From a virus (taxonomy: Duplodnaviria; Caudoviricetes), in IMG/VR virus record IMGVR_UViG_2788500332_000005, positions 3,633 through 67,632 of that record: DNA of 64,000 nucleotides; one strand, given 5' to 3'. How positions within the stretch are numbered: position 1 is the stretch's first letter; each line of letters opens with the position of its first letter. Under the pieces are notes generated by a model, which was given only the letters and a program-made list of their open reading frames with translations, had not been told where the DNA came from and searched no databases. Below are positions 7,486-26,163 of the stretch, one piece after another. The translations under genes were made by a program, and so were the position numbers.

Positions 7486-7617
7486 GCTTCCGACGCTGCC
7501 GTGCGTCGAAGAAGGCGCTGCCATGCGCCATGCAGCTGGAGCCCGGTCAACCCGCATGCAGCGACGCCACCCGCTGCCGGCTCCAGCTGCCCCCTCAGGG
7601 TGGCGCAGGTGGTTAGC

Positions 7618-8928
7618 ATGACAGATTGGTTCCGCTCCTGGCACGGAGCTCCGGCGGACCCCAAGTGGCGGACGATAGCCAAGCGCGCAAAGGTGCCGAC
7701 CTCCTTGGTGGTTTCGGTCGCCTGGTCACTTCTCGATCGCGCATCGCAAGCTGACGAGCGCGGTTCGATCATCGGGGCGGATATCGAATCTCTGGCCGAT
7801 TTCCTCGACGCTGAGCCTTCGGATGTCGAAGCGGTGATCAAGGCGATGCATGAGAAGGGCGTCCTCGACGACCAGCGTTTTGCCGCCTGGGAAAAGCGCC
7901 AGCCGAAGCGCGAGGACACCGGCTCAACTGACCGCGTGCGCCAGTTTCGTGAGCGCCAGAAGGCCGGCGTTTCATCCGTTTCGCAACGCAGTGAAACGCC
8001 CATGAAACGCAGTGAAACGCAACGCAACGACACGAAACGCTTTGAAACTACAGATACAGAGTCAGAGACAGAGAAGAAGAGATCAGAGTCTAATAATCAG
8101 CAGCAGCATTCTACGACACCGCGCGAGCCGGCTGCTGCTGCAGCTTCATCGGCTTTGCCGACGATCGATACCAACCAATTCGAGGTGCTTGAGCAAAAGC
8201 TGAGGGCTGCCGCAGGATACGAGCAGGCACCCTACCCCAACCTCTTCAACGTGGGGCCGATCCTGAAGCTCACCCAGGATGGCTTCGATCTCGAGACCGA
8301 CATCCTCCCCATCATCCGGGCGAAGGCCAAGACCGCCAGCAGGCCGGTGCAAAGCTGGGCATTCTTCGTGCCGGCCATCCTCGAAGCCAAGCAGGCGAGT
8401 GGCAAATTCAACGGCGGTCCGTTCCCGGTCGCCCAATCGGCCAAGTCGAAGCAGGAGCAGAGGGCCGAGATGTTCGCCCATCATCGCGCCAACGCCAAGG
8501 CCGACGGCTTCGATCCCGACACGGAGCTTGGCCTGCGCAAGCTGCTGATGGCGATTGCCCGCGGCGAGTGGAAAGCGACATGGGGCTCGGACCCGATCGG
8601 CAAGAACGGCCGAACCGAGCGGTCGGATATCTTGATCCCGGCCGAGTGGCTCGCATCGCATCTGGCGGTGCTGGAAAACTGCGCGGCGCTGCTCTGGAAG
8701 GGCGGCTGCTACAACGACGTCGAGCAACTGGCGCGCTTCATGGGGACGAAGGCAATCCCCGCGAAAACAGCCGACGAGCTCCCCAATCCCGAGATGGCGC
8801 GCCTTTGCGACGAATATCTCAAGATTGATCCGCTTGAGCCGCCGCGCCTCTCCCCGACAACGAAACCCTCTCTGATGCCTGCCATTCCCTCGACGTTTGC
8901 ACAGGACGGCGTTTCTCATCTTAAATGA
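7618..8928 (+). CDS. phage replication initiator-like protein
   Basis: N-terminal WFRSWHG...DPKWRTIAK wHTH-like region, internal repeat/linker region, position downstream of dnaB; start re-called at 7618. Confidence 0.65.
   Translation: MTDWFRSWHGAPADPKWRTIAKRAKVPTSLVVSVAWSLLDRASQADERGSIIGADIESLADFLDAEPSDVEAVIKAMHEKGVLDDQRFAAWEKRQPKREDTGSTDRVRQFRERQKAGVSSVSQRSETPMKRSETQRNDTKRFETTDTESETEKKRSESNNQQQHSTTPREPAAAAASSALPTIDTNQFEVLEQKLRAAAGYEQAPYPNLFNVGPILKLTQDGFDLETDILPIIRAKAKTASRPVQSWAFFVPAILEAKQASGKFNGGPFPVAQSAKSKQEQRAEMFAHHRANAKADGFDPDTELGLRKLLMAIARGEWKATWGSDPIGKNGRTERSDILIPAEWLASHLAVLENCAALLWKGGCYNDVEQLARFMGTKAIPAKTADELPNPEMARLCDEYLKIDPLEPPRLSPTTKPSLMPAIPSTFAQDGVSHLK
7975..8050 (+). repeat. 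iteron-like repeats inside the initiator gene (candidate origin)
   Basis: TGAAACGC(A/C) repeated with about 10-11 bp spacing, plus CGCAA repeats, followed by an A/G-rich tract; similar to the lambda O arrangement. Confidence 0.6.
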
Positions 8929-24321: not shown

Positions 24322-24801
24322 TCAGTTTGCCGTTGGACTTGAAATAACGCTTGCCGTGGAGGCATGAGCAAGGATGACGTCGACCGTCACGCCCTCGGCC
24401 GCGGCGATCTTTCTGAGCACGTCGGCGGGAGGAGCCTTGATCTTCCCCTGCTTCAAATTGTAGAGGGTGGACGGGCTGACACCGGCCTTCTCGGCGAGCG
24501 GGCCGGCCTTGAGACCACGCGCCTTCATGAAGGCAAACAGCGCTGCGGACTTGTCGGCATCCGAGAGGTCGACCCTGCCGCCATACTCTGTCGCCAAAAC
24601 GATTTCCAAACGACTGGCAATCACATTGCCATAGACTAGATCGTCCCGCCCTAGAACAAAGCGCAAGGCATACCTCAATCGCAGCCAAAGCGACGCATCG
24701 CGCGATGTAACGATCTTGACTTCTGCGAGATGCCCACCCGGCTTTGGATCAATATGAATGAAGTGATCTGGAGTATAGTGGTCGCAGGGGATGTAGGTCA
24801 T
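24322..24801 (-). CDS. protein with a C-terminal HTH paralogous to the repressor
   Basis: ALFAFMKARGLKAGPLAEKAGVSPSTLYNLKQG versus repressor ALFNFMAARRLKAGTLARKAGLSPSIFYNLKNG. Confidence 0.75.
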   Translation of the reverse strand: MTYIPCDHYTPDHFIHIDPKPGGHLAEVKIVTSRDASLWLRLRYALRFVLGRDDLVYGNVIASRLEIVLATEYGGRVDLSDADKSAALFAFMKARGLKAGPLAEKAGVSPSTLYNLKQGKIKAPPADVLRKIAAAEGVTVDVILAHASTASVISSPTAN

Positions 24802-24872
24802 GGGGGTATCCTTGGCTGGTGCGTTGAGGGGAGATGAGGCGTGTGGCGGTACGAAGCGCGGCAATGAGGGGA

Positions 24873-25361
24873 TTATTTCGAGATGAACATCGACAGCGTG
24901 TCGTTGGTCGGCAGTTCGCGCGCGGCCGGCGGGACTTTCGCCTCGACCTTCTTGATGGAGGATTCCCTCGTCATCATCGCGATAGCGCTGTTGACGCTCA
25001 TTTCGGCTGAAAACCTGATTTTCTGTTCATTCGTGAGACTGTCGAAGTCGGCCTTCGATTGCCGCTCAACAGCCCGCGCCGCGCTCTTATGGAGCGCGGT
25101 CGTTCTGGCACTGCCGTCGGCTACAATCTCCGCGTCGGTCAGCCGTTTTAGGCCGACGCCACGGACTGCGGAAAACACGAAATCCTTGTCACGAAGAACA
25201 CGCCGCATAGCAGTGGCAATGTTACCGCGGATGTCGTCCAGAGGCCGCGAGACGACCTCGCAGATGCGCTCATAGGGGATGATCTCCCCTTTGGCGCATT
25301 TGGCGAGTTCCTGGGTGATGAGCCGGGTTTCTGCGGAAGATTGGAATATCGGACGAGGCAT
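24873..25361 (-). CDS. accessory protein of the repeat/RAMP locus (possible wHTH)
   Basis: Start re-called at MPRPIF with a GAGG SD; GEIIPYERI...VRGVGLKRL wing-like motif. Confidence 0.7.
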   Translation of the reverse strand: MPRPIFQSSAETRLITQELAKCAKGEIIPYERICEVVSRPLDDIRGNIATAMRRVLRDKDFVFSAVRGVGLKRLTDAEIVADGSARTTALHKSAARAVERQSKADFDSLTNEQKIRFSAEMSVNSAIAMMTRESSIKKVEAKVPPAARELPTNDTLSMFISK

Positions 25362-25374
25362 TCTGAAACCTCTT

Positions 25375-25464
25375 GGTGGCTGTTGCGTAGTGCGGCGTTG
25401 CGACAAGATGCGGCGCGCAGTGGAAAGTTGAAGGGCGCAGCGTAGTCGCTGGTGCGTGAGCACC
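25375..25464 (-). repeat. array C: leader hairpin plus 14 units of (NN + CGC-like triplet); candidate guide RNA
   Basis: Minus strand GGTGC-TCAC-GCACC agc gac TA cgc TG cgc CC ttc AA ctt TC cac TG cgc GC cgc AT ctt GT cgc AA cgc CG cac TA cgc AA cag CC acc. Confidence 0.85.
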
Positions 25465-25493
25465 CAGAAGTGGGCCTTGGTCCATTTTTGGAT

Positions 25494-25570
25494 GCCCACG
25501 ACCGAAGTCGTGGGCGGCTGGTGAGTTGCGTTGCGTGTCGTTGAGAAGCGGCGCGATGCGTTATGGAGGA
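25494..25570 (-). repeat. array B: about 11 units of (NN + CGC-like triplet) followed by a UUCG hairpin
   Basis: Minus strand cat AA cgc AT cgc GC cgc TT ctc AA cga CA cgc AA cgc AA ctc AC cag CC, then GCCCACGAC-TTCG-GTCGTGGGC. Confidence 0.8.
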
Positions 25571-25575
25571 TCAAA

Positions 25576-26148
25576 TCAGGTTTCGGCCCACTCGAAACCG
25601 TCGACATAGAACCGGCCGATCATGCCGCCCTTCTCCGGGCGGAACCTGCCGATGCCGACGAGGCGGCCGGCCTCGACCAGGGCGCGCTCGAAGATGTCCT
25701 TCGGGATCACGTCATCAAGGATGGCGAACGTCGCGGTCCCGGACCACGACTGGATGTAGGGGAAGATGCGCTTGACGCGCTTGCCGCTGCCGCGCACGCC
25801 GTCGGCATTGGCCCAGATGGTGATGGATTCGAGATCGTCCTTCTTGATGCCGATCGGCACGTCGGCGTCGCAGATCTGACCGGCGAGGAAGAACTTGGTG
25901 TAGGTGGACTTACCGCGGCCAGGAATGCCGATATTCAGGCGCTTGATTGCCTCGTCGATCGACATCTTCAGCGCCATGGCCGGGATGCAGACGGTGCCGT
26001 CAGCGTTGACCGTGGACTTCTCTCGCCACAGGCGCTTGTCGTAGCCGGCGGCATCTTCCTTCGGCAGCTTCGGGTGCTCGTCCGGGTCGATCGCCCGACT
26101 CTGCGAATAGGGAGTGGCGGAACGAAGTTCAGCTTTGCAAATGCGCAT
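25576..26148 (-). CDS. RAMP/Cas7-like protein (Vipr-like)
   Basis: N-terminal strand ICKAELRSATPYSQS, central CIPAMALKMSIDEA, C-terminal Gly-rich loop GRLVGIGRFRPEKGGMIGRF; flanked on both sides by 5-nt-period arrays. Confidence 0.7.
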   Translation of the reverse strand: MRICKAELRSATPYSQSRAIDPDEHPKLPKEDAAGYDKRLWREKSTVNADGTVCIPAMALKMSIDEAIKRLNIGIPGRGKSTYTKFFLAGQICDADVPIGIKKDDLESITIWANADGVRGSGKRVKRIFPYIQSWSGTATFAILDDVIPKDIFERALVEAGRLVGIGRFRPEKGGMIGRFYVDGFEWAET

Positions 26149-26163
26149 GATGTTTGCCTTTCA

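Follow-up and report, generated by a model that had tools for sequence, protein, structure and literature searches.

VIPR ('Viral Interference Programmable Repeat') is a silencer resembling CRISPR that reads bases in pairs and skips one after each pair (bioRxiv 10.64898/2026.04.26.720920). Vipr, a RAMP of roughly 20 kDa, polymerises on a vrRNA of 9-16 YNNGG repeats, hides each GGY and exposes each NN, and the NN pair with dsDNA with one base skipped per pair, usually the wobble position of a codon (2026 VIPR preprints). The characterised VIPRs have a dsDNA target, silence transcription and work on either strand. In nature they are directed against satellites and rival prophages, in particular against lysis-lysogeny regulators; alternative repeats (NNNGG, YNNNG and NNNNG) and accessory vap genes are described as well (2026 VIPR preprints). 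The argument that such a guide is wobble-proof is explicit in two of these papers (10.64898/2026.04.26.720920 and 10.64898/2026.10.15.759431). Passages of another preprint report 21 clusters of non-canonical arrays, namely GAC/NN, CAC/NN, WGT/NN and TGH/NN (10.64898/2026.10.21.760802). The closest named systems are the type II VIPRs of Escherichia phage SUSP1 and of a Pseudomonas fulva prophage, consisting of Vipr, vrRNA and vap1 (10.64898/2026.04.26.720920, 10.64898/2026.04.26.720927 and 10.64898/2026.10.15.759431).

We analysed a window of 64,000 nucleotides (the whole stretch of DNA under study) from an IMG/VR provirus whose head module is of the Mu type and whose replication module is of the primase/methylase type. 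Read from its sequence, the window contains a Vipr homologue, CGC/NN arrays and two guides that equal codon positions 1-2 of motifs of foreign mobile elements. Since a Vipr-type RAMP and arrays with a one-nucleotide skip occur together, we regard this locus as a VIPR system with a non-canonical CGC triplet instead of GGY. It is highly probable, in our judgement, that one of the arrays (array C) is the vrRNA guide region of a prophage-borne VIPR directed against the ImmA anti-repressor gene of rival prophages, and that another (array A) is directed against a satellite-like portal.

Organisation of the locus and its repeat arrays

The vipr operon runs leftward on the minus strand, in the order promoter, vrRNA A, vipr, vrRNA B, vrRNA C and vap. 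Its features, by position in the window, are the following.

26409..26436, minus: sigma-70-like promoter TTGACG-16-TATAGT at the head of the operon, agreeing with the consensus at 10 of 12 positions (a match by consensus only)
26329..26347, minus: leader hairpin CCGGC-GGGA-GCCGG with a TTTTT run after it, downstream of the promoter and upstream of array A, as read from the sequence
26251..26264, minus: 5' hairpin box GGTGC-TCAC-GCACC preceding array A; the 14-nt box is identical before array C
26172..26246, minus: array A (vrRNA A), 15 units of GAC/CGC/CAC/CTC/TTC + NN, in front of the 190-aa vipr
26182-26246, minus: guide of array A, units 1-13, matching portal codons
26164..26171, minus: conserved 3' end CAGCC(ACC) of vrRNA A, abutting the vipr RBS
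25576..26148, minus: vipr (P0002), 190 aa, a single-RRM RAMP by profile, AF2 model and fold matches
25521..25565, minus: array B, short and degenerate, about 9-11 units, directly after the vipr stop codon and ending in CTCAC-CAGCC
25494..25515, minus: hairpin GCCCACGAC-UUCG-GUCGUGGGC between arrays B and C, as read from the sequence
25451..25464, minus: 5' hairpin box GGTGC-TCAC-GCACC preceding array C
25393..25447, minus: guide of array C, vrRNA units 1-11, with one-nucleotide-skip matches to ImmA codons
25383..25392, minus: last two repeats of array C (CAC-TA and CGC-AA on the minus strand), a semi-conserved 3' handle unmatched by targets
25375..25382, minus: 3' terminus of vrRNA C (CAGCCACC, conserved), with the vap start codon 16 nt further on
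24873..25361, minus: vap-like gene of 162 aa, a putative accessory gene whose N-terminal part is predicted to form a winged helix, conserved directly downstream of vipr in 10 related loci

Array C lies inside a 214-bp spacer that separates two minus-strand genes. Read on the plus strand from 25383, it is made up of 13 pentanucleotide units (TTgcg TAgtg CGgcg TTgcg ACaag ATgcg GCgcg CAgtg GAaag TTgaa GGgcg CAgcg TAgtc), with the same NN that an earlier, sequence-only reading of this DNA had listed; on the minus (operon) strand it is (CGC/NN)n. The constant triplet is GCG in seven of the 13 units, and GTG, AAG, GAA or GTC in the others. Three period-5 arrays are found on the vipr strand of the window: A with 15 units, B with about 9-11 and C with 13. 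Arrays A and C have the GGTGC hairpin box and the CAGCCACC end in common, and array B has no 5' hairpin. Downstream of array C, CAGCCACC is followed by an AAGAGG ribosome-binding site and then by the start codon at 25361. We looked for a structured 3' tail and found the short conserved CAGCC only, without an evident pseudoknot, together with the conserved hairpin 5' of A and C. The CAGCC motif also ends arrays in four related loci (L003, L004, L005 and L015). The minus strand is presumably the transcribed one, judging only by the orientation of the operon and the likeness to YNNGG.

The spacers next to vipr contain arrays of this kind in almost every related locus, the low-GC L016 being the exception. 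CGC content was the criterion for calling arrays, and across the window and 11 related loci from IMG/VR (L013 being a duplicate of L012) it yielded 31 of them; no array was called in L006, L009 or L016. All 31 lie on the vipr coding strand and none on the opposite strand. Over 530 units, the constant triplet has an entropy of 0.47, 0.93 and 0.32 bits by position, with C at 93%, G at 82% and Y at 99%; this low triplet entropy is partly circular, because the arrays were called by CGC content. The two NN positions have entropies of 1.94 and 1.99 bits, and the NN strings are entirely different between phages whose Vipr proteins are 69-79% identical. Pentanucleotide arrays with three constant and two hypervariable bases are thus what flanks vipr. 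Their constant motif is CGC (unit YNNCG), not GGY (YNNGG), and it fits only the looser published class 'YNNNG / related consensus', so that the locus is placed as a VIPR member with non-canonical repeats.

Uninterrupted arrays of 36-50 units with internal CGCAA-CGCAA runs exist in three related loci (L007:4187-4366, L008:3366-3615 and L014:4033-4212), and these are probably several vrRNAs arranged head to tail. A 31-unit array of another related VIPR locus (L010:2558-2712) includes 11 consecutive units that decode, with a one-nucleotide skip, to IIGLGGTGS, the ThiF/E1-type GxGxxG nucleotide-binding motif. For these 11 units, 20 of 22 bases are matched in frame in two genomic loci (L117 and L196), and shuffled arrays gave no match at the threshold.

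Two open reading frames run through the arrays. The frame across arrays B and C (24873-25607, minus), which extends vap to 244 aa, was rejected as coding evidence, since no frame of a perfect (CGCNN)n can contain a stop codon. This property also accounts for the 120-aa frame across array A (25968-26330, minus), and both frames are likely artefacts.

The position of the arrays suggests another reading, in which (CGC/NN)n are protein-binding elements of the 5' UTR, TRAP-like or serving Vipr autoregulation, that act on vipr/vap translation in cis and have no target in trans. Arrays A and C end 16-18 nt before the start codon of vipr or vap, the RBS comes directly after CAGCC(ACC), and this placement is the same in the relatives. 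TRAP binds 11 triplets with 2-3-nt spacers between them. However, a cis-only role leaves unexplained why the NN strings of two arrays coincide with conserved codons in foreign genes (see below), and why NN is hypervariable between close relatives. Such a role may also coexist with targeting in trans instead of replacing it. As the whole explanation, it seems to us very improbable. A TRAP-like leader, Rho rut sites, iterons and methylase sites were each considered and rejected, since none of them explains the dinucleotide content.

Other elements were noted in and around the operon. The promoter-like TTGACG-16-TATAGT is strong, and a GC hairpin with a T5 run follows about 60 nt later, upstream of array A; this region may encode a short leader RNA or serve as an attenuator of the vipr operon. 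The GCCCACGAC-UUCG-GUCGUGGGC hairpin may perhaps serve as a boundary or processing element. Elsewhere in the window, positions 7985-8048 (plus strand) contain a run of a TGAAACGC-like 10-nt repeat (TRF periods 10 and 15), which is not a CGC/NN array. The run lies inside a 475-aa ORF (7501-8928) without a Pfam family, beside a DnaB-like helicase gene, and may represent iterons, an origin or a repetitive coding segment. An Rfam scan of the whole window gave no family at the gathering threshold, and blastn of GenBank phages with 24800-26500 gave no match. Searching sequencing runs with the locus returned no RNA run, and three runs with at most 8% of the words each.

The Vipr-type protein and the vap-like gene

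P0002, the product of vipr, has no Pfam family. We built a family profile (A1) from P0002 and 13 IMG/VR homologues (14 sequences). Its sole match in the PDB is 36pp, the 'SUSP1 Vipr protein' (E 4.8e-6), and the alignment spans the thumb and the G-loop. The AF2 model of P0002 (pLDDT 89) resembles Cas7-family RAMPs: all top Foldseek matches belong to this family (type VII Cas7, Csm3 and Cmr4; E 3e-7), and the top VIA matches are all Cas7/Csm3/Cmr4 (Z 11.3-8). The likeness of P0002 to SUSP1 Vipr is a profile-level one, as SUSP1 Vipr is absent among the entries of both fold libraries. By profile and model, P0002 is a Vipr-type RAMP, and it has the small size (about 20 kDa), the single RRM, the G-loop and the thumb of such a protein.

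In the alignment of homologues, G165-x-G167-R-F-R-P...G174-G175 is invariant. The G-loop reads GIGRFRP and aligns with GVGDWRP of SUSP1, where D177 is reported to hydrogen-bond G1 (2026 VIPR preprints). From SUSP1 to P0002, the paired residues are D177 and the invariant R168, W178 and F169, R179 and R170, and, in the thumb, R138 and F129. As a hypothesis drawn from a weak alignment, the change from Asp to Arg would fit a change of the first constant base from G to C. In the ESM Atlas, the protein has only viral clusters of hypothetical proteins as relatives. The Vipr profile found nothing in 10 genomes that carry the target, and gave only marginal E-values in two sampled orders (2 of 301 and 1 of 301 genomes).

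The gene downstream of vipr is a syntenic gene of 156-169 aa in 10 relatives, and has no Pfam or PHROG family. Its AF2 model (pLDDT 89.5) has an H-S-H-H-S-S topology with an N-terminal winged helix. A sequence profile against the PDB and Foldseek gave weak matches only (Foldseek E >= 0.02), all of them to winged-helix regulators. We call this gene vap-like.

Predicted targets of the arrays

The guide of array C reads CG TT AC AT GC CA GA TT GG CA TA in plus-strand order. The sequence-only reading had treated the dinucleotides of all 13 units as codon positions 1-2, giving [FL][Y*]R[FL]T[IM]A[HQ][ED][FL]G[HQ][Y*], a decoding that is correct by the genetic code. We searched with the 11 dinucleotides of the guide, one skipped base each (CGNTTNACNATNGCNCANGANTTNGGNCANTA): IMG/VR contains 98 exact matches, and the species-representative genomes contain at least 120. 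All 98 viral matches are in frame on RFT[I/M]AHE[F/L]GHY of Peptidase_M78 (ImmA) genes, and the genome matches listed translate to the same four peptides. The peptides at the viral sites are RFTIAHEFGHY (81), RFTIAHELGHY (15) and RFTMAHEFGHY (2). Thus, the 11 paired dinucleotides correspond in sequence to codon positions 1-2 of R-F-T-I-A-H-E-F/L-G-H-Y, the HExxH zinc site of ImmA/IrrE-type anti-repressor proteases, as that reading had recognised. It had named RFTIAHELGHY as the motif; in the natural targets, HEFGH is the main form, with the residue read from TT being Phe in 81 of the 98 viral matches. The match also extends over 11 of the 13 dinucleotides, since the leftmost TT and TA (25383-25389) are unmatched in all targets, which mostly have CG.AA (Arg-Lys) there.

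The 98 viral sites are 59 distinct 32-mers, with two to four different bases at each of the ten skipped positions, as expected from the wobble-indifferent pairing that had been proposed from the letters of the array. As the third codon position is skipped, a single guide would cover all synonymous variants of the catalytic motif. In a representative target (L046:7254-8165), the zinc site lies within a PF06114 domain (E 1.6e-18); a typical target gene encodes 303 aa. The start of the target gene overlaps the stop codon of an upstream HTH_3 (XRE) gene, so that the ImmA gene is paired with an XRE-type repressor gene, and a DUF2924 gene and a large serine recombinase gene are nearby. Across the 98 target loci, we found homologues of ImmA in 96, of XRE HTH in 83, of DUF2924 in 59 and of the serine recombinase in 59. 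GRKRFTIAHEFGHYILHRH represents the main target family, and the named carrier genomes listed are mostly Beta- and Gammaproteobacteria. As a limit on the targeting reading, CGNTTNACNATNGCNCANGANTTNGGNCANTA effectively back-translates a conserved motif, and for this reason many matches fall in unrelated phyla that this phage can never meet. The target had been supposed to be external to this DNA, and indeed the window has no ImmA and no HK97-portal homologue, with its best self-matches only at shuffle level.

Array A was searched in IMG/VR with its first ten units and the same one-nucleotide skip. We obtained 17 matches in 17 contigs, all in frame on the GRAPLSLAREAIG codons of HK97-type portal genes, a representative of which belongs to Phage_portal (PF04860, E 1.7e-82). 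The best targets pair with units 1-13 and leave the last two units unmatched. Hence, guides A and C have in common that the last two repeats before CAGCC are unpaired with the target. The contigs with array A targets are 5.9-19.9 kb long, most of them 14-20 kb, and carry genes for an integrase, a replication initiator, a portal, a protease-capsid fusion, an HNH protein, a head-tail adaptor and TerL, with no long tail genes. On this gene content, and by comparison with cf-PICIs, we take them to be capsid-forming satellite-like elements of about 17 kb.

No credible target was found for array B, either in IMG/VR with a 9-unit pattern or in the flanks of the ImmA targets. The single match of the 9-unit pattern is in a phage of 27% GC and was rejected as being at chance level. 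In the flanks of the ImmA targets, the best scores of arrays A and B are at shuffle level, and thus there is no single element on which all three guides meet. An array of L015 gave no match. A 10-unit guide of an array of L005 matches two near-identical viral contigs in frame on ITDGQELSAA (L252:13460-13488 and L253:452-480); these contigs have 41% GC, a poor fit to the high-GC source of L005, and the match is ambiguous.

The decoding leaves many degrees of freedom (phase, strand and two-fold amino-acid choices), and neither array B nor the L015 array has meaningful matches. The arrays might accordingly be simple intergenic repeats, and the ImmA decoding a coincidence among many tried decodings. 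Against this, the reversed order of the array C dinucleotides gave no match, compared with 98 exact in-frame matches in the true order, which is the kind of control search that had been called for. Array A, at the same locus, independently gave 17 in-frame matches in one gene family and none in reversed order, and a Vipr homologue adjoins the arrays. The 18-base gapped pattern of array B had one match in IMG/VR, so the chance level for a 22-base pattern is well below one. Shuffled arrays and skips of 0, 2 or 3 nt likewise gave no match, in a 1.78-Mb locus set that had been chosen by its array C match. We regard the probability of such a coincidence as negligible. For both arrays, the one-nucleotide-skip code is borne out by bioinformatic evidence only.

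A third alternative keeps the guides and changes their target or purpose: the RNP would bind the mRNAs of immA and the portal gene, or its silencing would be aimed at regulators like ImmA in host defence islands, such as those of the CapP type, instead of at prophage anti-repressors. Both resolved guides are complementary to the sense strand, and CGNTTNACNATNGCNCANGANTTNGGNCANTA also occurs in many chromosomal ImmA-like genes across phyla. The sequence-only reading had argued along these lines from the complementarity of the minus-strand RNA to the coding strand; the complementarity to the codons holds, but the characterised VIPRs bind dsDNA, on either strand, rather than the RNA complement, and two guides are too few to establish a strand bias. 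Of the 98 viral targets, 83 are XRE-ImmA pairs located in temperate elements that have a serine recombinase. We therefore consider this alternative unlikely, albeit less so than the two discussed above, and prefer silencing of rival mobile elements at the DNA level.

Proposed function and comparison with known systems

In the preferred reading, by analogy with the SUSP1 system, the leftward operon from the promoter to vap would be transcribed, and Vipr protomers, one per five-base repeat, would polymerise on the minus-strand RNA. The protomers would sequester the constant CGC (C-N-Y) triplets and leave the NN dinucleotides exposed. These could then pair with the DNA strand that carries the complementary dinucleotides, with one skipped base between them, and binding within a coding sequence would block transcription. 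With immA blocked downstream of its XRE partner, a rival would have no anti-repressor and its repressor would stay uncleaved. The rival would likely be held in lysogeny while the VIPR-bearing phage develops. Through array A, the portal gene of a satellite-like element would be blocked, and packaging of the satellite would stop.

A further and much more tentative proposal, which we think rather doubtful as a whole, is that this clade is a naturally orthogonal VIPR with feedback through vrRNAs in 5' UTRs and with motif-level guides. The replacement of D177 by R168 would re-specify the first base from G to C, with no cross-talk between CGC and GGY. Filament assembly or processing at CAGCC could feed back on vipr/vap translation. 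The guides may aim at the ImmA HExxH and portal GRAPLSLAREAIG motifs and not at the sequence of one rival. If true, such motif-level guides would mean family-wide, escape-proof silencing of anti-repressors and satellites.

The one-nucleotide-skip rule predicts in-frame targets in a clade that is far from SUSP1 and has another triplet, and this sequence evidence by itself supports the generality of the code. The ImmA zinc site would be an apt target: a mutation that escapes would kill the enzyme, and the guide would not register a synonymous one. With an ImmA guide, a prophage could prevent the induction of co-resident prophages. A portal guide against small capsid-encoding satellite-like elements resembles the conflict between SUSP1 and its satellite. 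CGC/NN together with the Asp-to-Arg change in the G-loop suggests a specificity switch and, if confirmed, would offer an orthogonal Vipr/vrRNA pair for programmable DNA binding. Array C is not a new principle, as the wobble-proof logic has already been published. New here are the predicted targets (the ImmA active site and the satellite-like portal), the unused 3' repeats and the architecture of a 5' hairpin with CAGCC, all as read from the DNA.

Like the type II VIPRs of SUSP1 and P. fulva, this system has a small single-RRM RAMP with a G-loop, and vrRNAs flanking vipr in which a five-base unit, three bases constant and two hypervariable, is repeated 9-16 times. It shares with them one-nucleotide-skip, in-frame matches to genes of rival prophages or satellites, including lysis-lysogeny regulators, a small, putatively accessory gene downstream with a predicted winged-helix domain, and a prophage-borne location without a self-target. 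It differs from both in its triplet, CGC (YNNCG) here and GGY (YNNGG) there, in that neither resolved guide uses its last two repeats, and in that the vrRNAs abut the RBS of vipr and vap. Compared with SUSP1 Vipr, the sequence similarity is detectable by profile only, the G-loop is GIGRFRP instead of GVGDWRP, and the D177 that contacts G1 is an invariant Arg. The SUSP1 clade has a 3' pseudoknot tail, whereas the vrRNAs here have a 5' hairpin (GGTGC-UCAC-GCACC) and a 3' CAGCC with no obvious pseudoknot.

The arrays also resemble the non-canonical arrays (10.64898/2026.10.21.760802) and the 'YNNNG' vrRNAs of the VIPR type classification, in having a period of 5 and another fixed trinucleotide beside a Vipr-like fold. 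In the text passages of that preprint, CGC/NN is not named among the clusters and none of these is assigned a target. Among solved structures, those nearest in fold to the Vipr model are the Cas7 backbone filaments of class 1 CRISPR systems (Csm3, Cmr4 and type VII Cas7). In these too, one protomer covers a fixed step of RNA and a thumb breaks the guide-target duplex periodically, but with a 6-nt periodicity and one flipped base, as opposed to 5 nt and three flipped bases here. In contrast to class 1 CRISPR, the locus lacks CRISPR repeats, spacers and other cas genes, and VIPR guides are hard-wired whereas those of CRISPR are acquired.
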